A stretch of DNA of 64,000 bases from Verrucomicrobiia bacterium (GTDB lineage: Bacteria; Verrucomicrobiota; Verrucomicrobiia; Limisphaerales; JADLHS01), in assembly GCA_011525685.1 (NCBI GenBank), contig WYBW01000168.1, positions 25,859 to 89,858 of the forward strand, written 5' to 3'. Shown here in pieces: positions 13,541-39,983 of this stretch. The position numbers and the translations under genes were made by a program. Below the pieces are notes generated by a model, which made no database searches, had not been told where the DNA came from, and saw only the letters and a list, made by a program, of their open reading frames with translations. Each line of letters begins with the position of its first letter. The stretch's first letter is position 1.

Positions 13541-13662
13541 ACCTTCTGCGATCCGGGAGGTCGGGTTTGCCTGCGGCTTATCCATCTCGAAATGCTGGGC
13601 ATGGATTGGGGCGCTGACACTGAAATGCCCTCTGCCGTCCATCCAAGGCTCGCCAAGATTAG

Positions 13663-13771
13663 TCAGCCTTGAACCCCCGGGCGGTCAGTCCGCAAAGCTC
13701 CCTTCTGCTCGCCGCCCACCGTAACGCCGACTTTCCAGTCGGCGACTGGCCGGTTGGAAAACCGGCGTTAC
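13663..13771. repeat. Structured palindromic intergenic repeat, copy A (about 109 bp; 3' 51 nt = GTAACGCCGACTTTCCAGTCGGCGACTGGCCGGTTGGAAAACCGGCGTTAC)
   Basis: About 95% identical over about 110 bp to copy B at 13957..14068. Perfect outer stem GTAACGCCG/CGGCGTTAC, inner hairpins GCCGAC-TTTCCA-GTCGGC and CCGGTT-GGAA-AACCGG. Confidence 0.7.
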
Positions 13772-13956
13772 TTTGCGACCCGGTTGACCACCTCGGGTGC
13801 AATTGAAAGTGACGGTCCATTTGCGTGGTGGCAGTGCTCGCGCTGCGAGCACTCCGCCCGCGCAGAGCGGGCGGAACGTCGCCGTCAGGGTTGCGCCGCC
13901 GCACGCGGCAACACGGCTCGCAGCGCAAGCCGTCCCACCCCAGAGACCGCCACGTT

Positions 13957-14068
13957 CAGTCCGCCTTGAACTCCCGGACCGTCAGTCGCCACAGCTCCCG
14001 TCTGCTCGCCGCCCACTGTAACGCCGACTTTCCAGTCGGCGACTGGCCGGTTGGAAAACCGGCGTTAC
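13957..14068. repeat. Structured palindromic intergenic repeat, copy B
   Basis: Direct repeat of copy A, same orientation, about 285 bp away; located downstream of the hemC 3' end on the other strand. Confidence 0.7.
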
Positions 14069-14237: not shown

Positions 14238-15260
14238 TCACCGTAGCGCCGTTGCCAGTTCGGTTCCCAGTTCCACCGCTTCCTTGAGGGGGCGTTGGGC
14301 CTCGCCGCGTTTGACCTGCTCGTCCCGGTAAGAAACGGCGCGCATCCGGATTTGCTGGCCGCTGACCTCGGCGTGAGCCGCCACCGGACTGAGACATCCA
14401 CCTCCCATGGCGTGCAGGAAGGCCCGCTCCGCGGTCACGCATTGGAAGGTGTTGTAGTGGTTCAGCCGCTCGCAGAGCTTGCCGATCCGCTCGTCATCCG
14501 AGCGAATCTCGATGCCAATGGCCGCCTGGCCGACGCAGGGCAGCATCACGTCCAAGCCCAACACCGTGGCCAACAGTCCGTCCGGCACGGCGTCGCCTTG
14601 AATGTTCCCGTCCGGAGTCAGTGTGAAATTCAACCGGGTGATCCCGGCGAGCGCCAGGACGGTGGCGTCCAGTTCCGCGCGATCGGCCACTTTTTGCAGA
14701 CGGGTCGAGACGTTGCCGCGAATTTCCACCACGTTCAGATCCGGCCGCACGGCGAGCAACTGCGCCTTGCGCCGCGTGCTGCTGGTGGCGATGGTTGCCC
14801 CCGAGCGAAAATCCGCCAGCGTCGCCTGCGGCCTCAGCCCGCGCAGCGCGCCCTGGCCGGGAGTCCACTCGTCTCCGCGATGATTGTCCGGGTTGGTGAA
14901 ATAGGCGTCGTCGCGATAGATCAAGACGTCGCGCACGTCGGCGCGCTTGGGCGTGGCAGCGAGTTTCAACCCGGCGGGCAGGTCGGTCGGCAAATCCTTG
15001 AGGCTATGCACGGCCAGGTCGGCGTGGCCTTTGAGCAGGGCGACCTCCAGTTCCTTGGTGAACAGCCCTTTCGGGAGGCTGTCGCTGGTCCGGGCCAGGG
15101 AGGCTTTTTGCAGCTTGTCGCCGGTGGTCTTGATGATCTTCAACTCGAAACGCAGCCGGGGAAAGGCGGCGCGGCATTGCGCGGCAATCTGGTTGGCCTG
15201 AGCGAGCGCCAGGGCGCTGCCGCGGGTGGCGATGATGATGGGGCGCTTGGAATCAAACAT
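14238..15260 (-). CDS. hemC: Porphobilinogen deaminase (hydroxymethylbilane synthase)
   Basis: 340 aa; MFDSKRPIIIATRGSALALAQANQIAAQ..ELKIIKTTGDKLQ..LARTSDSLPKGLFTKELEVALL, typical HemC N-terminal and cofactor-binding motifs. Confidence 0.9.
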   Translation of the reverse strand: MFDSKRPIIIATRGSALALAQANQIAAQCRAAFPRLRFELKIIKTTGDKLQKASLARTSDSLPKGLFTKELEVALLKGHADLAVHSLKDLPTDLPAGLKLAATPKRADVRDVLIYRDDAYFTNPDNHRGDEWTPGQGALRGLRPQATLADFRSGATIATSSTRRKAQLLAVRPDLNVVEIRGNVSTRLQKVADRAELDATVLALAGITRLNFTLTPDGNIQGDAVPDGLLATVLGLDVMLPCVGQAAIGIEIRSDDERIGKLCERLNHYNTFQCVTAERAFLHAMGGGCLSPVAAHAEVSGQQIRMRAVSYRDEQVKRGEAQRPLKEAVELGTELATALR

Positions 15261-22808: not shown

Positions 22809-23740
22809 TTCACGACCGTGCGGGACGACAGCCGCGGGCTGACATAAGAATACCAATAAACATCCGGATCATTGGCCGCAGTCCCAAAGTTATTCTGCGC
22901 ATTGAAATTGACGCCTTTCAGACCACCCGACAAGCGGGCTCGAGTCATGGTAGAGCCGCGCCATTTATGGATTTCCGAGTGGCCATCGGCGAAGGCGAAG
23001 CCCGCAGCACCGTTGTGGTAAGTGGCCGGCGCATCTGGGATGTTCGTGGCAGAATTAGGCGGAAAAGCACCCGCGTCATTGATGCTGTCCGGATGCTCAT
23101 CCATGTAAACCCACGTTTGAGCCGGGCCAGGGATGGTCAGTTCGCTTGACTTGGCGGCACCTTTGTAGATGGAGAGGTTGTTTGGACCGCCCGCTGTATA
23201 ACCAGGACCATTGGCCCAACCGTTGCCTTTTCCAATGTAGATGTTCCCGGAAACGCTGCGAACGCGTGAACTCCAACCGCGTTGCCTTTGCGGCAGGCTG
23301 GCGTAGTTGTCTGCCGGACACAGATACACGTTCTTTTGCTTTCCAAAGTAGCTCGCCAGAATCGCATACTGAGGATTAATCAGGTAAACCAAATTGGTGT
23401 TGTCTGTGCTGACCGACCAATCCAACCAGCCCGTGACCCACGGCCGGTTGGGATCGTTCGCCCCGGGAGTGTAGCCGCCGTGAAACGCCATGGGGAAGAG
23501 ATCGTTATTGTCGCCTTGGTAAAGGTGGTTGGCCAACATCAACTGTTTGGTGTTGTTCATGCAACTGATGCCCTGCGACTTGGTTTTCGCCTTGGCGAGC
23601 GCGGGGAAGAGCATCGCCGCCAGGATGGCGATGATCGCAATCACCACAAGCAGTTCAATGAGGGTGAAGCCACGGCGGTCTTGGCGGTGGGAGGTCCGGA
23701 TCGTCAGAGGGCCGTGCTGGGAGCAGGTGCTGGTCTTCAT
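22805..23740 (-). CDS. DUF1559 / H-X9-DG protein with prepilin-type N-terminal cleavage/methylation domain
   Basis: N-terminus [31 protein letters not shown] (type IV pilin-like leader plus TM), C-terminal [13 protein letters not shown] matches H-X9-DG. Typical of Planctomycetes/Verrucomicrobia. Start M at 23740 (ORF track 23764). Confidence 0.85.
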
Positions 23741-30914: not shown

Positions 30915-33086
30915 ATGTGGACCACCATCATCATCGGACTCCTTCTGGTCGCGGGCCTTGTGGTCGTCGCGATCACGCTCCTGTGCATCCGCAAAATCCA
31001 GCCCGGTCGTGCCGGCGTCAAAACCGGCTGGGGCGGCCTCAAGGTGTCGTTCGACTGGATGGTGCGCATGCCGCTCGTCCAGACCTATCACATCATGGAC
31101 ATCTCCGTGAAGAAGCTGGAGATCACCCGCAAGGGCAAGGACGGCCTGGTCTGCAAGGACAACATTCGCGCCGACATCACCGTGGCCTTTTACATCCGGG
31201 TCGAGGCCACCGAGGAAAGCGTGCGCAAGGTCGCCCAGATGCTCACCCCCGAGCGCGTGTCGGACGTGAACCAGTTGCGCGAGCTGTTCGAGGCGAAGTT
31301 TTCCGAGGCACTCAAGACCGCCGGCAAACAGATGGAATTCCATGAACTGTTCACCGAACGCATCAAGTTCCGCGACCAGATTCAGAACACCATCGGCAAG
31401 GACCTTGACGGCTTCCTGCTCCAGGACGTGGCGATTGATTATCTCGAACAAACCCCGCTCGATCAGCACGACCCGAACAACGTTCTCGACGCCGAGGGCA
31501 TCAAGAAGATTACCGAAATCACCCAGCACGAGCGCGTGCTGGCCAACGAGTTTTCCCAGCGCGCCCAAGTGCAGGTCGAAAAGGAAAACGCCGACGCCGA
31601 CATCGCCAAGCGCGAGCAGAAGCGCCGCAACGAAGAAGACACCGCCAAACAGACCCGCGCCATCACCGAGGTGAAGGCCAACGAAGAGGCCGAGGCCCGC
31701 AAGGTGATCGAGGCCCGCCGCCAGGAAGTCGAAGGCAAACGCCTCGAAGCCGAAGAAGCGATTCAATTGCGCACGCAGGACATGAACCGCGCGGTGCAGG
31801 AACGTCAGTTCACGGTCACCAAGGAGAAGCAGCGCCTCGAACAGGAAGCCGTGCAGGAAGGCGAGGAAGCGCGGGTCCGCCGTGAGCGTTCCGTTTCGCT
31901 CGCCGAGATGGACAAGGAAGTCAAAGTGGCCGAGGCCGCCGTCGAAGTGGAACGCAAGAAAGCCGTGGTCGTGGCCGAGCAAAAGGCCGTTGTCCAGCAA
32001 CAGGAGGAAAAGACCAACATCGAGGCCCGCATGACCGCCGAGCGCGTGCGCGAAGTCACGCTCATCGAGGCGGAGATGATTGCCAAGAAGGGCCAGGTCG
32101 AGAAGGTCGTTGCCTCCGAAGCCCAGAAGGAAGCCGACCGCAATCTCGCCGAGGCCGAGAAGATCAAGACCATCACCGCCGCCGAGGCCGCCCGCGAAGC
32201 CGCGTTGCGCGAAGCCGAGCGCCTGCAAACCCTTGCCGATGCCGAAGCCAAGGCCAGCGAGAAGAAGCGGCACGCCATGGAACAAGAGGCCGAAGGTCTC
32301 GCCGCGCAGGAAGCCGCTGCCGGGCTGGCGGAGGCAAAAGTCATCGTGGCCAAGGCCAGCGCCAAGAAGGCGGATGCCGAGGCCATCAAGGCTGTGGGTC
32401 TGGCCGAAGCCGAGGTCGAGAAGGTCAAGGGCGACGCCCATGCCGAGGTCACCGAAACTCAGGCCGCCGCCGAAGCCGAGGGCACGAAGGACAAGGAACT
32501 CGCCATTGCCACCGGCATCCAGGCCAAGATGCTGGCCGAAGCCAAAGGCATCGAAGAGAAGGCCAAGGCCATGAAGCTCCTGCACGAGGCCGGCCAGCAA
32601 CACGAGGAATTCCGCCTGCGCCTCAACAAGGAACGCGACGTCGAACTCGCGGCCATCAATGTCAATCGCGACATTGCCCGCGCCCATTCGGAAGTCGTGG
32701 GTGAAGCCCTTAAGAACGCGAAGATTGACATCGTCGGTGGCGAGAACGACTTCTTCGAGAAGATCGTCCGCGCCGTGGGCAGTGGCAAATCCGTGGACCG
32801 CCTCGTCGCCAACAGCGAGACGTTGTCCGACATCAAGAGCACGTTTTTCAACGGCAACCCGGATTATTTCAAGTCGCAACTCGCCCAGTGGGTGAAGGAC
32901 TTTGGCATCAAGACCGAAGACTTGAAGAACCTGACGGTCTCTGCGTTGCTCGGCAAAATGATTGCGTCGTCCAAGGACAGTGGGTTGCAGTCGTTGCTGA
33001 AATCCGCGCACGCCATGGCCAAGGAAAGCGGCTTGTCTGACGTGATGGCGAGTGCGGTGTTGGCGGACAAGCCGGCCAAGGTGTGA
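30915..33086 (+). CDS. Flotillin / SPFH (band-7) family protein with about 450-aa Glu/Ala/Lys-rich coiled-coil tail
   Basis: N-terminal TM (MWTTIIIGLLLVAGLVVVAITLL), SPFH core (..YHIMDISVKKLEITRKGKDGLVCKDNIRADITVAFYIRVEATEESVRKVAQ..), then heptad-like charged repeats (EAEARKVIEARRQEVEGKRLEAEEA..). The 912-aa reverse ORF 30546..33284 is its low-complexity shadow. Confidence 0.85.
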   Translation: MWTTIIIGLLLVAGLVVVAITLLCIRKIQPGRAGVKTGWGGLKVSFDWMVRMPLVQTYHIMDISVKKLEITRKGKDGLVCKDNIRADITVAFYIRVEATEESVRKVAQMLTPERVSDVNQLRELFEAKFSEALKTAGKQMEFHELFTERIKFRDQIQNTIGKDLDGFLLQDVAIDYLEQTPLDQHDPNNVLDAEGIKKITEITQHERVLANEFSQRAQVQVEKENADADIAKREQKRRNEEDTAKQTRAITEVKANEEAEARKVIEARRQEVEGKRLEAEEAIQLRTQDMNRAVQERQFTVTKEKQRLEQEAVQEGEEARVRRERSVSLAEMDKEVKVAEAAVEVERKKAVVVAEQKAVVQQQEEKTNIEARMTAERVREVTLIEAEMIAKKGQVEKVVASEAQKEADRNLAEAEKIKTITAAEAAREAALREAERLQTLADAEAKASEKKRHAMEQEAEGLAAQEAAAGLAEAKVIVAKASAKKADAEAIKAVGLAEAEVEKVKGDAHAEVTETQAAAEAEGTKDKELAIATGIQAKMLAEAKGIEEKAKAMKLLHEAGQQHEEFRLRLNKERDVELAAINVNRDIARAHSEVVGEALKNAKIDIVGGENDFFEKIVRAVGSGKSVDRLVANSETLSDIKSTFFNGNPDYFKSQLAQWVKDFGIKTEDLKNLTVSALLGKMIASSKDSGLQSLLKSAHAMAKESGLSDVMASAVLADKPAKV

Positions 33087-33102
33087 TGAGCAGGATGGGA
33101 AA

Positions 33103-33386
33103 TAGCGTGGACGTTTCGCGAAGCAGTCTGTCGCCCCTCCGGGGCTTGTGGTGCCGCCGACTAACCCACGGCTCAGGCCGTGGGCTACTGGCTGCCGCTG
33201 CTCCGCAGCTATCCGCGTGGGGAGAAACCAGCGCAAACCCGAAACGGATCGAAACATTCGAGCGTGTGACCTGAGGGGCGACACAGGCGCGGAGCGCCGT
33301 CAGAGAGTAGCCCACGGCGCAAGCCGTGGGTTTGAATCGAAAACGAATCAAGCCCCGTAGGGGTGAAAGAAAAGAGCGGAAACAAT
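33103..33386. repeat. REPIN-like palindromic element (left of RAYT): G-rich hairpin, REP(-) ... REP(+), G-rich hairpin
   Basis: REP hairpins at about 33164..33188 (AACCCACGGCTCAGGCCGTGGGCTAC) and about 33307..33332 (GTAGCCCACGGCGCAAGCCGTGGGTT) in inverted orientation. Terminal GCCCCTCCGGGGC / CCCCGTAGGGG hairpins. Both ends are reverse-complement related to the ends of the right-hand element. Confidence 0.7.
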
Positions 33387-33387
33387 C

Positions 33388-33840
33388 ATGGCCCACACCT
33401 ACACGAGTCTGTTGAGCCATATCATTTTCAGCACGAAGGACCGCGTGCCAATGTTGGATGCGGAGCTGAAGACTCGGCTGTTTCCCTATATGGGCGGCAT
33501 TATCCGTGAACTCGGCGGTGCCGGGCTGTCGATCAACGGGCCGACCGATCATGTCCACTTGCTCGCCTCGTTGCCTGCCACGATTGCGCTTTCTGATTTT
33601 GTGGGGAAGGTGAAGGCCAATTCATCTGGCTGGGTTCACAAAACATTTCCCAACCAACGCGAATTCAAGTGGCAGGTCGGTTACGGCGCATTCAGCGTCA
33701 GTGTTTCCCAGCGCGACAAGGTGCTGACTTACATTGCCGATCAGGAGGAACACCATCGCAAGGTATCGTTTAAGGAAGAGTTCATGGGCTTTCTCAAGAA
33801 ACACGGGATCGCCTACGACGAGCGTTACGTTTTTGATTGA
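33388..33840 (+). CDS. REP-associated tyrosine transposase (RAYT; IS200/IS605-like Y1 HUH transposase)
   Basis: 150 aa; HUH motif GPTDHVHLLASLP, C-terminal catalytic-Tyr helix VLTYIADQEEHH, RAYT-typical size. Flanked on both sides by GTAG-initiated REP palindromes. Confidence 0.85.
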   Translation: MAHTYTSLLSHIIFSTKDRVPMLDAELKTRLFPYMGGIIRELGGAGLSINGPTDHVHLLASLPATIALSDFVGKVKANSSGWVHKTFPNQREFKWQVGYGAFSVSVSQRDKVLTYIADQEEHHRKVSFKEEFMGFLKKHGIAYDERYVFD

Positions 33841-33844
33841 TGAA

Positions 33845-34150
33845 TGGTTGTTTGAACATTTGCGGAAATGGTCTTTCGCCCCTACGGGGCTTGTTCCGTC
33901 GCGGCACGAAACCCACGGCTGACGCCGTGGGCTACTCTCTAACGGCGCTCCGCGCCTATGAAACTGCTTCCGCCACTCCCATTGTATCGAGAAGGAGTTT
34001 GCCAGGAACTTGTTCGTTCTGTGCCCCACAACGGCGGGGACTTGTCCGTGTAGCTGCGAAGCAGCGCCAGAGGGTAGCCCACGGCTTACGCCGAGGGTAT
34101 GACGCGACCACATGCCACAAGCCCCGGAGGGGCGAAAGAACACCCCGGCG
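33845..34150. repeat. REPIN-like palindromic element (right of RAYT)
   Basis: REP hairpins at about 33909..33934 (AACCCACGGCTGACGCCGTGGGCTAC) and about 34076..34100 (GTAGCCCACGGCTTACGCCGAGGGTA, degenerate); terminal GCCCCTACGGGGC and GCCCCGGAGGGGC hairpins. Confidence 0.7.
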
Positions 34151-34187
34151 CGCGTGTCCACATTTTCATTTTTCGTTTGCCTGATCC

Positions 34188-37100
34188 ATGCCCGACGCCC
34201 CCGAACCAAAACCCGCTCCGCCGCCCGAAGGCGCACCGACTGCCGCGCCCGAAACCACTGCGCCCTCGACCGCGCAGGCGCTGGGCAGCGCAACGTATGA
34301 AATCATCCGCCAGCGGCTGAACACGCAGGGCGCGGCGTTGCGGGAACGCATGGCCAAGCTCGACGCCCGCCGCGCGGAGGTGTTCGGGACGATTGAGTAC
34401 AAGCTGCTCCAGGCCGACCGCATCGTCACGTCACACAACTGCGTCCCGCGCGACATGGTTCAGCTTGGGCACGGACGATTTCTGTTCGGTTTCAACGTCC
34501 AGTTTGGGCTGAAGAAGGAAATGGAACTGGCGGATGTGTTCGCGGTTTATCGGCGCGACGAGGAAGCGGGGACGTTCAAGGAGGACACGCTCGACGTTCT
34601 CAACGACAAACAATTCCTCATAGACTTCAAGCGCCTCTACAACGTCTATGAGAAAACCGCGTTCCGGAAATTCGCGGTCATTGACGGCAAGCTTTACATG
34701 AAGTTCGCCACCGGCGCGGGGCTGAATGATTTCGCCGTGTTCAAGTGGGCGTTCAACGAAGGCAACCTGAAGTTCGTGGATGGTCGAGCCGAAGCCGAGT
34801 ACCGCCGCATCGCCTATCCGCCCGCGCATCAGTTTCGCTGGCAGACACCGGATCGCGAATCCTATCGCTACGGCGATCATCCGCATGTGTCCATCGAGGA
34901 CCGCGTGTTCGTGGAGTGCGTCGGCGGCGATCTTACGATCAAGGTCGAGGACAACACCAAGACCGGCGAGGGCGTTTATTCCGAGCCGGTGGATGACAAA
35001 TACCAAAAGGTGGACGATGCCGAGATCGCCTACGGCCTGGTCGGGCATTTGATCCTGCTGAAAATCCGGCCTTACAAGGAGCAGGCCGCGCGCTATTTCA
35101 TTTTCAACGAGAAGCAGCAAACGGCGGTGCGGGTGGATTCCCTCGGGTACTCGTGCGTCATGTTGCCTGAGGAGCACGGGTTGATTTTCCCGGACGGCTA
35201 CTATCTCGCGACCGGCGAACTCAAGCAGTTTGACTGCGACGCCACAAACATGGTCATCGAACGCGTCGTTCATGCGCCGAATGGCGAGGATGTGCTCTAC
35301 GTGTTTTACAACCGGCTGACGGGTGATTACGCGCTGCTGCCGTATCGCCTCATCGCGCAAAAGGTCGAGGAGCGCATCAGTTGCAACGGTTTCTCGCTGT
35401 TCCCGAACGGTCATCTCCTCTTGTTCCGCGCCGAGGCCGAGCCGCAGAAGCATCACATGATTCAACTGCGGCAGACGCCGTTCCATCAGCCCGGTTCCGA
35501 GCCCGCCGGCCAGAAGGATGCGTTCCTGTATCAAGTCGGGAACAAGGAAGTCGTGCGCTGTCTCGCCGAGTGCAACGAGGTGATGACGCTCGTGCGGAAG
35601 GAAAATCCCTACGCGGAAATCTACACCGACCTCGTCAAACGTTGCGGCGCGATTCTTGATTCGTATCCGTGGCTGTCGAGTGCGGATGGTTTCGGCGTGG
35701 ACGCGGCCTTGCGCGCCGTGCGCGAGGCGGCGGACAAGGCGGTGGATGAATACGACAAGGTGCGCCGGCTGCAACGCGAGGCGGTCGAGCGCGTGAAGGA
35801 CATTCGGAAGCGTTGCACCGAGCAATTCCAGAACATCCGTCGCGCGAGCTTCCGCGTGCTGAATGATTTCGTGGTGAACCTCGCCACCTTGCGCAAGTTG
35901 CGCGGCGAACTCATCACGCTCAAGGAAGTCCGCTACGTGGACGTGGCGCAGGTTGAGGAGTTGGAGAAGCAGGTTGCGACGCAGACCGACGAACTTTCCA
36001 ACTCGTGTGTGAAGTTTCTGCTCAAGCCCGAGGCGCTGGAACCGTATCGCCGGCAGGCCACCGATCATCTTGCGGCGGTGGATCGAGTGACCAAGGTCGC
36101 CGAGGGAAAAGAAATCGAGAAGGCCGTGACCGTGGCCGGCGGCGAACTCGAAATGCTCATCGAGATCGTCAACAGCCTGAAGATCGAGGACGCCACTGAG
36201 ACGACGCGCATCATTGACGGCATCACGGCGGTTTATTCCACGCTGAATCAGGTCAAGGCCGCGCTCAAGAAGCGCCTGCAAAGCCTCGTCGCCAGCGAAG
36301 GCGCGGCGCAGTTTGCCGCGCAGATGAAGCTGTTGAGCCAGGCGGCTTCGAGTTATCTCGACCTCTGCGATTCGCCGGCCAAGTGTGAAGAGTATTTGAA
36401 TCGCCTCTCCGTTCAACTGGAGGAACTGGAGGGCACATTCGCCGATTTCGAGGAATACACCGTTCAACTCGCCGAGCGGCGCACCGAACTTTACGAGGCG
36501 TTCGAGCAGCGCAAGGTTGCGCTCGTCGAGCAACGGAATCGCAAAGCCTCAGCGCTGATGACCGCTGCCGAGCGCATTCTCAAGGTGATTCAGAATCGTC
36601 TCGCCGGGTTCAAGTCCATCGAGGACATCAACAGTTACATGGCGTCGGACCTGATGATCGCCAAGGTTCGCGAGACGATTGAGCAACTGCTCGCGCTTGG
36701 CGATTCGGTGAAGGCCGACGACTTGCAGGGCCGGCTCAAGAGCGTGCAGCAGGACGCGGTGCGGCAGTTGAAGGATCGGCAGGAATTGTTTGTCGGCGGC
36801 GAGAACGTCATCAAGCTCGGCAAGCATCAGTTCAACATCAACACGCAGCCGCTCGACCTGACAGTCGTGAATCGCGACGGGGTGCAGCACATCCACCTGA
36901 CGAGCACAAAGTATTTCGAGGCGATCACGGATGAAGCCTTCCTCGCCACGCGGGATGTGTGGGATCAGGAAGTGGTTTCGGAGAATCGCGAGGTTTATCG
37001 CGCCGAATATCTCGCGTGGCAGATGTTGAAGGCGATCGAAAATAGGAGCGCGGGCTTTAGCCCGCTTCAACGTGGCAATGGCGGAGCCCTTGGAAATCCT

Positions 37101-39983
37101 GATGAGTCCCAGCCAGTGCGGGAGGTGAAGCGGGCTGAAGGCCGCGCTCCGAGTCTGGCGGCAGCCCTTGCGTTTTCAGACGACCAACGCCTCGGCTTCG
37201 TGCAGGAGTTCATGGGCGCGCGGTACCAGGAAGGCTACGCCAAGGGCCTTCATGACCAGGACGCCGCGAAGATTTTCCACGCGCTGCTCACCACGCATCA
37301 CGCGCTGCAACTCGCGCGCTTCAGTCCGATGGCGCGGGCCGGCGCCGTGGTTTACTGGAATCGCTTTTGTCCGGCGGAAACGAAGACGCTCTGGACGGCC
37401 AAGCTCAACGGCTTTGCCGAGCGCAACAAGCTTTTCCCCGGCGATCCAACGCAACAAGACTACATCGCCGCGCTGCAAGCGTTGGTGCGCGCGTTCGTCG
37501 AGGAAGCGAAGCTCTACCCGCCCGAGATCGCCAATGAAGCGGGCGAGTACCTGTTCAACGAACTCATCACCAGCGAAACGGTCTCCGTCAGCCAGGAAGC
37601 CGATCAATTGGCGAACGCGTTCAGCCGTCATCTCGCGAGCAAAGGCAGTGAGAAGACCTTTGAACAACGCCGCCAGGCACTGGTCGAGCATCCCGGCAGC
37701 GAACTCGACTTGGTGCGCGATTGGGTGAGGGGATTTCTCCTTACACAGGTGGATCCGGTCGCGCTGCGACCGGATGTCGAGTCGCAGCGCGACTCGACCC
37801 ACCAGTTCCGCTATCTCGATGAAGTCGCCGCCATTTTGTTCTGCGGCGCGGCGCTCAAGCGCTCCGTCGTCAAAGCCGCCACCTCGCGGGTGATCGAATG
37901 CATGAAGGGCAGTCACGCGCTGATTCAGGGCAGCAAGTATCACTTTGATTACCTGAACTTTCAGGAACGGCTGCAACGCTTCGAGCGCGAGGTTGTGCCG
38001 CGTTTCGAGAAGTTCCACGCGCTCAAGCAGGAGTTGATTGAGCGCGAGCGCGCCAAGCTGCGGCTGGAGGAATTCAAGCCCAAGGTGCTGACGTCCTTCG
38101 TGCGCAACCAGCTCATTGACCAGGTTTATCTTCCGCTCATCGGCGACAATCTCGCCAAGCAGATTGGCGCGGCGGGCGCGGCCAAGCGCACGGACCTGAT
38201 GGGATTGCTGCTCGTGATTTCGCCGCCCGGTTACGGCAAGACCACCCTGATGGAATACATCGCCAGCCGGCTGGGACTCGTCTTCATCAAAATCAACGGC
38301 CCGGCCCTCGGGCACAATGTCGTGTCGCTCGATCCCGAGGAAGCGCCAAACGCCGCCGCACGCGAGGAAATCATCAAGCTGAACCTCGCGCTGGAGATGG
38401 GCGACAACGCGATGATCTGCGTGGACGACATCCAGCATTGCAACCCGGAGTTCCTGCAGAAGTTCATCTCGCTCTGCGACGCCCAACGGAAGATCGAGGG
38501 CGTCTGGCGCGGGAAGCCGCGCACTTATGATCTGCGCGGTCGCAAGGTCGTGGTGGTGATGGCGGGCAATCCTTACACCGAAAGCGGACAGAAATTCAAA
38601 ATCCCGGACATGCTCGCCAACCGCGCCGACACCTACAACCTCGGCGACATCATCGGTGGCAGCGCGGATTATTTCAAGGCGAGCTATCTCGAAAACGCCG
38701 TCACTTCCAACGCTGTGCTCGCACCGCTGGCGAACAAGAGCCAGAAGGACATCTGCTCGTTCATCCGCATGGCGGAATCCGGCGAGCGCGAGGCCGAGGG
38801 GTTCGAGGGGAGTTACTCCTCGCAGGAGGTGGAGGAAATCCTCTCCGTGATGAAAAAACTCGTGATGATTCGCGAAGTCGTGCTGCGCGTGAATCAGGAA
38901 TACATCTACTCCGCCGCGCAGGCGGACGAGTTCCGCGTCGAACCGCCGTTCCGCTTGCAAGGATCGTATCGCAACATGAACCGCTTGGCGGAAAAGGTCG
39001 TCGCCATCATGAACGACGACGAAGTGCGCGGACTCATCGTGGACCATTATCGCGGTGAGTCGCAGACATTGACGACCGGCGCGGAGGCGAACCTGCTCAA
39101 ATTCAAGGAACTCATCGGCGAATTGACGGCGGAGGAGAAAGCGCGCTGGGAGGACATCAAGCAGACGTTCAAGCGCAACAACGCCGCACGTGGTGCCGGC
39201 GGCGAGAACGACCCCGCCGGGCGCATCGTGGCGCAGTTGAGCGGGTTTCAGTCGGGCTTGGAAGGAATCCAGAAGGTCATCTCAGACCAGTTGGCCAAAC
39301 CACCTCCGCCACCTCCACAGGTCAACGTGGACATGACTCCGGTGGGCCGCAGTCTGGAAGCCCTGCAAACCGCTCTGGAGAAACAAGCGGCAAAGGCCCC
39401 GCCTGCGCCGCAAGTCGTGGTGGACCTGACCCCGGTAGGCAAAGGGCTGGAAGCATTGCAGGCGGCGCTGGAGAAGCAGTCCACGAGGTCGCAACCTGCC
39501 GCGCTGCCCGTGACGATTGATCTCACGCCGCTCGCCGCGAACCTCGAGGCGTTGCGCAACACCGTTGACCAGCGCCTCGCACAACCGGCCAGGAAAGAGG
39601 ACAAGGGCAATGGCGATTTCAACGTGCTCGCCGCCAAGCTGGGCGAAGGACTGAACGCACTGCGGGAGGACTTGAGCCGGGCGATTTCGGTGGTTCACAC
39701 CGGCACGATGGCCGACGCGATGAAGCGGATGGAGCACGAGATGGAGATGGTCCACAGCACGCTGGCAACATTGAAAGACATGGCCGCGCGGCAGCGCGAT
39801 CATTTGCGCGCCTCGCAGGAACTGCTGGAAACCCGCGCGAAGCAGGGCGCGGTGGAGATTGACGTGACGCAGGAGATGTTGACCAACGAAGCGGCGTTCC
39901 TCGAACACTTCCACAAAGTCATTGCCGAGGCGCAAAAGCAGCGCGAGTCCAAGGAAGGCGAACCACCGTCAAAGAATCAATGA
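34188..39983 (+). CDS. Giant (1931 aa) coiled-coil protein with a single MoxR/AAA_5-type ATPase module and C-terminal tandem repeats; function unknown
   Basis: Continuous ORF with coherent domain content. Walker A LLLVISPPGYGKTTLMEY (nt about 38229). Walker B/MoxR box NAMICVDDIQHCNPEFLQKFISLCD. Sensor region VVVVMAGNPYTESGQKFKIPDMLANRADTYNL matching the MoxR pattern hhhATxNP.E..G...LPEA.LDRF. Long predicted coiled coils between residues about 520-900. Three about 36-aa repeats at the C-terminus (..VDMTPVGRSLEALQTALEKQ.. / ..VDLTPVGKGLEALQAALEKQ.. / ..IDLTPLAANLEALRNTVDQR..). Reverse ORFs 34431..36533 and 37176..39047 are shadows. Confidence 0.85.
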   Translation: MPDAPEPKPAPPPEGAPTAAPETTAPSTAQALGSATYEIIRQRLNTQGAALRERMAKLDARRAEVFGTIEYKLLQADRIVTSHNCVPRDMVQLGHGRFLFGFNVQFGLKKEMELADVFAVYRRDEEAGTFKEDTLDVLNDKQFLIDFKRLYNVYEKTAFRKFAVIDGKLYMKFATGAGLNDFAVFKWAFNEGNLKFVDGRAEAEYRRIAYPPAHQFRWQTPDRESYRYGDHPHVSIEDRVFVECVGGDLTIKVEDNTKTGEGVYSEPVDDKYQKVDDAEIAYGLVGHLILLKIRPYKEQAARYFIFNEKQQTAVRVDSLGYSCVMLPEEHGLIFPDGYYLATGELKQFDCDATNMVIERVVHAPNGEDVLYVFYNRLTGDYALLPYRLIAQKVEERISCNGFSLFPNGHLLLFRAEAEPQKHHMIQLRQTPFHQPGSEPAGQKDAFLYQVGNKEVVRCLAECNEVMTLVRKENPYAEIYTDLVKRCGAILDSYPWLSSADGFGVDAALRAVREAADKAVDEYDKVRRLQREAVERVKDIRKRCTEQFQNIRRASFRVLNDFVVNLATLRKLRGELITLKEVRYVDVAQVEELEKQVATQTDELSNSCVKFLLKPEALEPYRRQATDHLAAVDRVTKVAEGKEIEKAVTVAGGELEMLIEIVNSLKIEDATETTRIIDGITAVYSTLNQVKAALKKRLQSLVASEGAAQFAAQMKLLSQAASSYLDLCDSPAKCEEYLNRLSVQLEELEGTFADFEEYTVQLAERRTELYEAFEQRKVALVEQRNRKASALMTAAERILKVIQNRLAGFKSIEDINSYMASDLMIAKVRETIEQLLALGDSVKADDLQGRLKSVQQDAVRQLKDRQELFVGGENVIKLGKHQFNINTQPLDLTVVNRDGVQHIHLTSTKYFEAITDEAFLATRDVWDQEVVSENREVYRAEYLAWQMLKAIENRSAGFSPLQRGNGGALGNPDESQPVREVKRAEGRAPSLAAALAFSDDQRLGFVQEFMGARYQEGYAKGLHDQDAAKIFHALLTTHHALQLARFSPMARAGAVVYWNRFCPAETKTLWTAKLNGFAERNKLFPGDPTQQDYIAALQALVRAFVEEAKLYPPEIANEAGEYLFNELITSETVSVSQEADQLANAFSRHLASKGSEKTFEQRRQALVEHPGSELDLVRDWVRGFLLTQVDPVALRPDVESQRDSTHQFRYLDEVAAILFCGAALKRSVVKAATSRVIECMKGSHALIQGSKYHFDYLNFQERLQRFEREVVPRFEKFHALKQELIERERAKLRLEEFKPKVLTSFVRNQLIDQVYLPLIGDNLAKQIGAAGAAKRTDLMGLLLVISPPGYGKTTLMEYIASRLGLVFIKINGPALGHNVVSLDPEEAPNAAAREEIIKLNLALEMGDNAMICVDDIQHCNPEFLQKFISLCDAQRKIEGVWRGKPRTYDLRGRKVVVVMAGNPYTESGQKFKIPDMLANRADTYNLGDIIGGSADYFKASYLENAVTSNAVLAPLANKSQKDICSFIRMAESGEREAEGFEGSYSSQEVEEILSVMKKLVMIREVVLRVNQEYIYSAAQADEFRVEPPFRLQGSYRNMNRLAEKVVAIMNDDEVRGLIVDHYRGESQTLTTGAEANLLKFKELIGELTAEEKARWEDIKQTFKRNNAARGAGGENDPAGRIVAQLSGFQSGLEGIQKVISDQLAKPPPPPPQVNVDMTPVGRSLEALQTALEKQAAKAPPAPQVVVDLTPVGKGLEALQAALEKQSTRSQPAALPVTIDLTPLAANLEALRNTVDQRLAQPARKEDKGNGDFNVLAAKLGEGLNALREDLSRAISVVHTGTMADAMKRMEHEMEMVHSTLATLKDMAARQRDHLRASQELLETRAKQGAVEIDVTQEMLTNEAAFLEHFHKVIAEAQKQRESKEGEPPSKNQ

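Follow-up and report, generated by a model that had tools for sequence, protein, structure and literature searches.

A probable REPtron-like unit formed by an IS200-like Y1 gene and inverted GTAG-headed three-hairpin arms in a Verrucomicrobiia genome

The window analysed here is a stretch of 64,000 nt from a Verrucomicrobiia bacterium (assembly GCA_011525685.1, contig WYBW01000168.1, positions 25,859 to 89,858 of the forward strand). Between a gene for a flotillin-like protein and a giant DUF3686 ATPase gene it carries a small gene for a Y1 transposase-like protein of the HUH type, surrounded by four copies of a palindromic module that we call the arm. Each arm contains a repetitive extragenic palindrome (REP) headed by GTAG, and with orientation A defined as GTAG-forward and B as its reverse complement, the locus reads B - 62 nt - A - [gene] - B - 82 nt - A (Table 1). 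We propose that this is probably a REPtron-like unit, in which a vertically inherited, single-copy IS200-like Y1 gene lies in an A[gene]B arrangement with one singlet arm on each side, and whose arms would spread in trans. The first-pass annotation of this DNA had described a REP-associated tyrosine transposase (RAYT) of 150 aa bracketed by two elements of about 290 bp, each taken to be a REPIN, that is, an inverted doublet of REPs.

Much of what that annotation saw at the locus stands. The pattern GTAGCCCACGGC-N4-GCCGTGGG, the GTAG-tagged REP in inverted orientation around the gene, is found at four sites in the 64 kb, as against 0.02 expected from shuffles, the fourth site having one mismatch (the REP of arm 4 is degenerate, GCCGAGGG). 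The G-rich H1 hairpin TCGCCCCTNCGGGGCTTGT occurs exactly four times where 0.14 occurrences are expected, and the outer ends, at 33127-33151 and 34115-34139, are reverse complementary as claimed, 96% over 25 nt. R1, a covariance model of the arm built from 150 copies, was run with filters off and returned four full-length arms at 70-85 bits, with the rest of the 64 kb at noise level. The two elements of about 290 bp fared less well: the hairpins and REPs listed for them are present, whereas a third hairpin, H3, had been overlooked. Inner arms 2 and 3 are each other's closest relatives, 92% complementary over 52 nt and with a common H3 stem (GGCGC/GCGCC), and so are outer arms 1 and 4, with theirs (GCTGC/GCAGC). 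As the inner arms pair best together and the outer arms likewise, the symmetry is concentric around the gene and not that of two equivalent elements. Arm 2, which ends 7 nt before the ATG of the Y1 gene, has a single-stranded DNA (ssDNA) fold z-score of -4.9; 38 nt separate arm 4 from the ATG of the DUF3686 gene. The suggestion that the unit provides promoter or terminator context for the giant gene found no support, as no terminator-like or + strand promoter-like site, and no T-tract terminator, was found in 32900-34400.

Table 1. Coordinates of the Y1 unit, its arms and other features in the window.
Feature	Position	Strand	Length	Remarks
Y1 HUH transposase-like gene	33388-33840	+	150 aa	ATG start; TnpAY1 subclass-1.2 type, by motifs
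Arm 1, outer left, orientation B	33117-33216	-		R1 77.9 bits over full 104 positions; RF01687 40.7 bits at 33165-33210
Arm 1, parts	H1 33133-33145; REP hairpin + CTAC 33165-33188; H3 33197-33209	-		H3 GCTGC/GCAGC
Spacer, arm 1 to arm 2	33217-33278		62 nt	Non-conserved: unlike right-hand spacer or other loci
Arm 2, inner left, orientation A	33279-33380	+		R1 82.2 bits; RF01687 49.7 bits
Arm 2, parts	H3 33286-33298; GTAG 33307-33310; REP hairpin 33311-33330; H1 33352-33364; GAAAGA 33365-33370	+		H3 GGCGC/GCGCC
Arm 3, inner right, orientation B	33862-33963	-		R1 85 bits; RF01687 53 bits
Arm 3, parts	H1 33878-33890; REP + CTAC 33912-33935; H3 33944-33956	-		H3 GGCGC/GCGCC
Spacer, arm 3 to arm 4	33964-34045		82 nt	Non-conserved
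Arm 4, outer right, orientation A	34046-34149	+		R1 69.8 bits; RF01687 38.1 bits
Arm 4, parts	H3 34053-34065; GTAG 34074-34077; degenerate REP 34078-34097; H1 34121-34133; GAAAGA 34134-34139	+		H3 GCTGC/GCAGC
REP pattern, four sites	33165-33188 (-); 33307-33330 (+); 33912-33935 (-); 34074-34097 (+)			Last site with one mismatch
Upstream flotillin-like gene	30915-33086		723 aa	Hydrophobic N-terminus; long E/A/K-rich region
Downstream DUF3686 gene	34188-39983			Giant ATPase gene
In-frame insertion in DUF3686 gene	37045-37150		~35 aa	Repeat 37045-37069 (+), partner 37126-37150 (-)
Direct repeats	13651-13771; 13948-14068		121 nt each	90% identical, 297 nt apart

Read on the GTAG strand, the arm of about 100 nt opens with the 5-bp H3 hairpin (GGCGC-N3-GCGCC or GCTGC-N3-GCAGC in the window), followed by G-N-[A/C]-A-G-A (GNMAGA) and two bases; its middle consists of GTAG, the 8-bp REP hairpin CCCACGGC-N4-GCCGTGGG and a variable linker of about 20-25 nt, and its 3' part of the 5-bp H1 hairpin (GCCCC-N3-GGGGC) and a second GNMAGA. 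GTAG is kept in 133 of 150 arms, with ATAG in 9 and TTAG in 3. All three helices covary: in the model-fitted alignment 98% of cells are paired and 15 of 18 pairs show double changes, values that 0 of 500 shuffles reach and that slid controls come nowhere near, and in an unfitted MAFFT alignment all five H3 pairs show double changes. The stems are nearly pure Watson-Crick (24 G.T and 15 A.C among 2632 cells, 0.9% wobble), which suggests, though not decisively, a palindromic DNA element rather than an RNA read from a single strand.

The arm was already in Rfam. All four copies exceed the gathering score of 37 bits for RF01687 (Acido-Lenti-1), the sole Rfam family to pass anywhere in the window; the 46-nt model is matched end to end and spans the REP hairpin, CTAC, a 12-nt linker and H3. 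In 15 other loci the family gave 34 matches, with arms matched in all 15, including arms that flank Y1 genes. RF01687 covers one part of a longer palindromic module linked to a Y1 gene, and its range includes Verrucomicrobiota and Planctomycetota. Weinberg et al. 2010 (PMC2864571) introduced Acido-Lenti-1 from Acidobacteria and Lentisphaerae and rated it a probable non-coding RNA; they listed 89 representatives, gave it no function and noted that group II introns are occasionally nearby. No link of RF01687 to REPs or transposases was found in the literature searched.

It is conceivable that the arms are primarily RNA elements, whether the Acido-Lenti-1 small RNA or hairpins for transcript ends, stability or termination, and that their link to the Y1 gene is secondary. 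Classical REPs act on mRNA stability and termination, and such roles would suit this explanation. It also draws on the passing of the RF01687 gathering score by four of four arms, and on the rating of the motif as 'probably RNA' from covariation (PMC2864571). We nevertheless regard it as very unlikely. The Rfam model is part of a larger palindromic module that occurs in inverted doublets and so has no preferred transcribed strand; a wobble of 0.9% is unusual for an RNA made from one strand; in 50 of 80 loci the arms flank an enzyme family that binds ssDNA hairpins; T-tract terminators are missing at the locus; and in two genomes the arms lie between nuoK and nuoL, where read-through must occur.

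The product of the Y1 gene matches Pfam Y1_Tnp (E 4.4e-23) and the NCBIfam transpos_IS200 equivalog (63 bits, cut-off 55), in agreement with the IS200-like HUH transposase first noticed, and its catalytic motifs survive alignment: H55 and H57 of the HVH motif and Y115 of YIADQEEHH are invariant across 31 homologs, Q119 nearly so, and the family consensus at the catalytic tyrosine is YIANQEEHH. The protein has DHVH, WQ at residues 95-96 (KWQ) and a C-terminal tail in which F128, E131 and D144 are invariant, and Y147 nearly so, among the same homologs. RAYTs are defined by NP(L/V)(R/K)xG after the tyrosine (Nunvar et al. 2010, PMC2817692), given as YIxxNP in Table 1 of PMC6006769. Against the PDB the family profile found only IS200/IS605 transposases (1e-12 to 1e-10) and missed E. 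coli TnpAREP (4ER8) at a cut-off as loose as E<=10; for the AlphaFold model of the protein (predicted local distance difference test score 82.5), the top 29 Foldseek matches to the predicted fold are IS608, ISDra2 and Sulfolobus TnpA (E about 1e-7), with 4ER8 in 36th place (E 0.017). As the NPxxxG motif is missing and 4ER8 is unmatched by the profile and only 36th by fold, the protein falls outside the TnpAREP clade; it is IS200-like and not a classical RAYT.

A better placement is offered by TnpAY1 subclass 1.2, which has a median length of 148 aa, DH[IV]H, WQ and YIKNQKEHH (Y---Q--HH) (Quentin et al. 2018, PMC6006769 Table 1), together with a conserved C-terminal tail of about 30 aa and low copy number (PMC6006769). 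Judged by its motifs and not by a joint tree, the window protein fits subclass 1.2 on every motif listed. The subclass was published as lacking REPs and as mostly from Cyanobacteria and Bacteroidetes (PMC6006769), and the absence of REPs does not extend to the proteins considered here: GTAG arms flank the gene in the window and in most homolog loci. The 'IS200 Group 3' of Bertels et al. 2017, without duplicates but with abundant flanking 16-mers (PMC5581495), may be the same group. Class 3 TnpAY1 and the acidobacterial TIRYTs were rejected as placements on motifs and length (PMC6006769, PMC3733652), and a PADLOC search of the Y1 protein gave no match.

The gene appears to have been at its present site for a long time. 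The exact protein is recorded on five contigs, and the four places displayed all have the same context. Homologs with 87% (loci L125/L126) and 70% (L130) identity occupy the same site, between a flotillin-like gene of about 715 aa and a DUF3686/AAA gene of about 1850 aa, and the wider neighbourhoods differ around these sites and that of the window. Compared with L125 the Y1 gene is 87% identical, the upstream gene 86% and the downstream gene 72%; the corresponding values for L130 are 70%, 79% and 71%. As the divergence of the Y1 gene tracks that of its neighbours at the same position, we conclude that the gene is resident and not mobile. In a second lineage, represented by two genomes, the gene lies between nuoK and nuoL and is 73% identical, as against 62-83% for the nuo proteins. 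With a dN/dS ratio of 0.07-0.13 the Y1 gene is under strong purifying selection. The gene-flanking arms of the window and L125 are 80% identical, compared with 64% for third codon positions. Writing R for the gene, L125 has the layout A[R]B at this locus, the window BA[R]BA and L130 AB[R]AB; as relatives differ in this way, arms have come, gone or been rearranged while the gene stayed in place.

Two loci, L127 (9905-10569) and L129 (9898-10568), carry the Y1 gene with A and B arms co-directionally in an NADH dehydrogenase operon, and L127 has in addition a 43%-identical paralog (14278-14918) between two Proton_antipo_M (nuoM/N-type) genes.

These observations bear on a second alternative, that the whole unit of about 1 kb is an autonomous insertion sequence (IS) of the IS200 family that inserted between host genes, the hairpins being its ends. 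Its attraction lies in the protein, which passes the cut-off of the NCBIfam IS200 equivalog, has its closest sequences and folds in IS608, ISDra2 and Sulfolobus TnpA, and belongs to a family whose members NCBI labels IS200/IS605 transposases. We find this alternative scarcely credible, as the flanks are inverted repeats (92% complementary) and not the asymmetric left and right ends of IS200/IS605, the same chromosomal site is occupied at 87% and 70% identity with neighbour-like divergence, and the exact protein is confined to one context while homolog clusters occur on very few contigs. Further, there is no tnpB, the WQ and Y---Q--HH motifs differ from the W[TS] and Y[IV]ENQ of subclass 1.1 (PMC6006769), the arms are far more numerous than the genes, and the family is nearly absent from plasmids: only two of 72,556 encode a homolog at E<=1e-10, both of them non-mobilizable Bacteroidota replicons of about 600 kb, with 39% identity.

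The 602-kb plasmid of Bernardetia sp. (NZ_CP147018.1, L212) is of interest in its own right. Upstream of its Bacteroidota homolog, which is 39% identical and reads YVLNQPEHH at the tyrosine, positions 990-1170 of the locus hold four hairpins AGTTGCAG(A/C)GCAACG in alternating orientation; the hairpin, AGTTGCAGAGCAACG, resembles the H3 hairpin of the arm (AGCTGCGGAGCAGCG). Typical subclass-1.2 genes may thus have flanking repeats too.

The association of gene and arms extends well beyond the window's relatives. Among 80 metagenomic loci encoding homologs 46-69% identical to the window protein, 50 have an A arm immediately upstream and a B arm immediately downstream and two have the reverse; 37 show the plain A[gene]B pattern. 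Usually about 20 nt or less separates the flanking arm models from the start and stop codons, and the same A upstream and B downstream are seen in L125, L127, L129, L026 and L043. Given these flanks in 50 of the 80 loci, the standard unit corresponds to an A-B doublet with a gene at its centre.

Such doublets exist without a gene, and in large numbers. A search through species-representative genomes, in blocks of 8 kb, for exact copies of the 20-base REP core gave at least 120 blocks from at least 81 assemblies, with up to six or more blocks per assembly; among the assemblies listed are about 40 Acidobacteriota, 18 Verrucomicrobiota, 16 Planctomycetota and a few others, and among the matches listed a homolog of the window protein is encoded in six of 120 blocks. 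In the first 100 of these blocks R1 detects 196 arms, which fall into about 110 clusters. Of these, 72 are A-B doublets, two of which enclose a gene of about 440 nt, and 34 are singlets; there is a single simple B-A pair, adjoining a transposase gene, and the few complex clusters each adjoin a transposase gene or gene fragment. An A-B doublet has outward-pointing GTAG heads and H1 hairpins that abut in the middle; it is about 200-230 nt long in all, and the gap between its arm models is mostly in the range of about -18 to +34 nt. Doublets avoid long reading frames, 6 of 71 lying in a stop-free frame of at least 250 codons compared with 231 of 355 windows drawn at random from the same set of loci. 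The idea of a REP/RAYT system is therefore borne out in one respect, in that the same palindromes are dispersed in many genomes, mostly without a transposase gene, and fails in another, in that the classical RAYT motif is missing.

Based on these data the window is best parsed as a singlet B, an A[gene]B unit and a singlet A. The B-spacer-A elements that had been read as REPINs were drawn with their boundaries the wrong way around: the recurrent doublet is A-B, and elsewhere a B-A arrangement was seen only next to transposase genes. As the spacers of 62 and 82 nt are not conserved and B-spacer-A does not recur, the 'unusually long REP spacing' (120-140 bp) reported for this locus is a product of that parse and corresponds to the non-conserved gap between a singlet arm and a gene-flanking arm. 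The H3 type of the inner arms is common to the same-locus arms of L125 and L130, and that of the outer arms to dispersed arms of other Verrucomicrobiota. The dispersed doublet, for its part, resembles an A[gene]B unit minus its open reading frame (ORF).

Three observations on individual loci may be added. Upstream in L130 (9716-9930) lies an A-B doublet whose centre aligns with the window's leader and the first two Y1 codons, ATGGCC (...CAAAGCATGGCC), and the alignment suggests that this doublet derives from a gene-containing unit through loss of the ORF. L140 (455-5515; JGI contig Ga0326727_10000131, 324 kb) has at least a dozen arms in 6.4 kb around one Y1 gene, with AAAB[R]ABB as the local pattern and another two A-B doublets besides, a far denser cluster than in the window's lineage. 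The loci L045, L075 and L077, from metagenome-assembled records titled Bifidobacteriaceae, Klebsiella and Bifidobacterium, have arms about 80% identical to those of the window, L075 with further similarity to it, and these taxon labels look wrong for such contigs.

The unit of the window might instead be a relic, a vertically inherited remnant in a genome that has lost, or never had, dispersed and actively maintained arms, its own arms persisting only through their tie to the gene, for example in its expression or regulation. Both the arm-free remaining ~63 kb of the window and the lack of any further arm within +/-10 kb of the gene in L125, L130 and L129 would be expected of a relic, as would the degenerate fourth REP. 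We consider it unlikely all the same, because the arm layout differs among three related genomes, implying recent gain or loss of arms, because the outer arms have the H3 type of dispersed arms in other Verrucomicrobiota, because QHPA01, a family-level relative, has arms on at least three contigs without the gene, and because selection on the gene is strongly purifying. In an empty-site comparison with the syntenic relative L058, where an arm lies upstream of the region homologous to the window at 17.8 kb, the intergenic sequences proved to have diverged too far for alignment.

Protein and REP appear to change together in some lineages. The L130 ortholog has arms with CCCACAGC/GCTGTGGG, a compensated change in the REP stem, and on either side of the 43%-identical L127 paralog, which reads YIEGQAEHH, the arms show ATAG-CCCAGGGC/GCCCTGGG, again a compensated change. 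These compensated REP variants beside diverged proteins indicate that protein and REP co-vary. An unchanged REP core is found beside proteins 54-60% identical to that of the window, in a metagenome-assembled genome (MAG) labelled Deltaproteobacteria, two Acidobacteriota MAGs (Bryobacteraceae and Blastocatellia) and a Planctomycetota MAG.

A number of results weigh against a REPtron-like unit and have to be set beside the evidence for it. Neither R1 nor the REP pattern finds a further arm in the remaining ~63 kb of the window, and none beyond the locus itself turns up in the 10 kb on either side of the gene in L125, L129 or L130, so that the dispersed arm population in the window's lineage may be small or absent. 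The window protein, with YIADQEEHH at the tyrosine, lacks the motifs that define the RAYTs studied by experiment, and action on GTAG hairpins would be an extrapolation across Y1 clades. Wobble asymmetry does not single out the GTAG strand as the functional one, the counts being few and even. Finally, classical RAYT systems are described as having fast REP turnover. The identity of the REP core across phyla is unlike such turnover; strong constraint and horizontal transfer may both be causes of this deep conservation.

On balance we still hold the REPtron-like unit to be the probable explanation, and its working could be envisaged as follows. IS608 and ISDra2 TnpA bind ssDNA hairpins. By analogy with these enzymes and with E. 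coli TnpAREP, the arm hairpins would form on ssDNA, for example on the lagging-strand template, where the Y1 enzyme would bind the GTAG-footed hairpin and perhaps also both small GNMAGA-tailed hairpins; the ssDNA could then be cut and rejoined by means of Tyr115 and an HUH-bound metal, a reaction demonstrated for those enzymes. Acting in trans, the enzyme would propagate or maintain singlets and gene-less A-B doublets (REPIN-like, about 200-230 nt), while the gene itself would no longer move. Binding and cleavage of the arms by the protein, mobilisation in trans and dispersed copies in the window's own genome are all inferred. A broader proposal, on which we are evenly divided, is that Acido-Lenti-1 is not a small RNA but the ssDNA recognition module of a second, separately domesticated Y1 lineage (subclass 1.2). 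As the identity of the enzyme fell to about 55%, GTAG-CCCACGGC would have stayed the same in Acidobacteriota, Planctomycetota and Verrucomicrobiota, in a REP/REPIN-type system with three-hairpin doublets of about 200 nt whose genes are often co-directional in conserved operons (nuoK|nuoL, flotillin-like|DUF3686).

The system shares much with the known REP/RAYT systems or REPtrons (E. coli TnpAREP/YafM, Pseudomonas, Stenotrophomonas; PMC2817692, PMC5581495, Ton-Hoang/Messing 2012), namely a Y1 HUH gene that is inherited vertically in single copy and has inverted GTAG-headed palindromes on both sides, the extragenic dispersal of these palindromes as singlets and inverted doublets, and apparent co-variation of protein and REP. 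It departs from them in a protein outside the TnpAREP clade, without NPxxxG, in a three-hairpin arm of about 100 nt and doublets of about 200-230 nt instead of REPs of about 20-40 nt and REPINs of about 70-110 nt, in the position of the gene at the doublet centre and in a REP core identical across phyla. Subclass 1.2 (PMC6006769) agrees in length (about 148-150 aa), DH[IV]H, WQ, Y---Q--HH, tail, low copy number and lack of IS behaviour, and differs in that the members described here, from Verrucomicrobiota, Acidobacteriota and Planctomycetota, have GTAG REP arms. The IS200/IS605 TnpA enzymes (IS608, ISDra2) are the closest solved structures and sequences, with the same HUH/Tyr core and probably, by analogy, the same recognition of a 5' guide tetranucleotide and an ssDNA hairpin; in contrast to them the window unit has a single context, symmetric inverted arms, no tnpB, other W and Y motifs and an extra C-terminal tail.

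Outside Proteobacteria, too, there are precedents, and REP systems as such are no novelty in this lineage. GTAG REPs were reported in 2013 in Planctomycetes and in the verrucomicrobium O. terrae (Di Nocera 2013, PMC3733652). These REP families of the Planctomycetes-Verrucomicrobia-Chlamydiae (PVC) group and the class 3 TnpAY1 of Solibacter (Quentin 2018) likewise combine GTAG-tagged or atypical REP-like repeats with Y1 genes, and head-to-head and tail-to-tail dimers and intragenic insertions are on record. Class 3 differs in having NHVH, W[TA], Y----Q, about 178 aa and a CnGA foot. Compared with supplements of Di Nocera 2013 (PMC3733652), a study that published 24 GTAG families, the REP core of the present arms found no match. 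Already known, then, are REP/RAYT systems, GTAG REPs in the PVC group, the Rfam motif and the protein subclass; what appears unreported in the literature searched is that RF01687 is a REP-type repeat and the cognate flank of subclass-1.2-type Y1 genes, that the three-hairpin arm is the repeat unit and that the doublet centre is the position of the gene.

Some other features of the window deserve mention. In L125 and L130, too, the upstream gene lies beside the giant DUF3686 ATPase gene; its product, labelled flotillin in the first-pass annotation, has no match in Pfam, NCBIfam or PADLOC. The DUF3686 gene has an in-frame insertion relative to its L125 and L130 orthologs, formed by an inverted pair of another palindromic repeat (GGAGCGCGGGCTTTAGCCCGCTTCA) and encoding the peptide ...AGFSPLQRGNGGALGNPDESQPVREVKRAEGRAPS...; by its sequence it looks like a miniature inverted-repeat transposable element or a REP-like element tolerated in a coding region. 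The two direct repeats of 121 nt lie where there is no ORF of at least 200 aa; each is Y-shaped, GTAACG-[CGCCGACT TTCC AGTCGGCG]-ACTGG-[CCGGTT GGAA AACCGG]-CGTTAC, and no Rfam family scored above its gathering threshold there. A conserved stretch at 23586-23684 was rejected as a repeat, being a prepilin-type N-terminal coding segment that matches other loci, and no tRNA was found in the window.

For the window alone the consequences are modest: the unit has long resided between the flotillin-like and DUF3686 genes and gives no sign of controlling the giant gene. For the family they would be wider. If our interpretation is true, an Rfam family that has been without a function for 16 years would move from candidate small RNA to REP-type DNA repeat, changing the annotation of RF01687 matches in Acidobacteriota and PVC genomes, and subclass 1.2, described in print neither as an IS nor as linked to REPs, would acquire its cognate DNA element. 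That would place REP-type systems on the IS200 side of the Y1 tree, a point relevant to how frequently transposases have been domesticated with the spread of REPs, and an enzyme of 150 aa with an arm of about 100 nt would make a compact test system for the recurrence of the GTAG-footed hairpin in distant Y1 clades.

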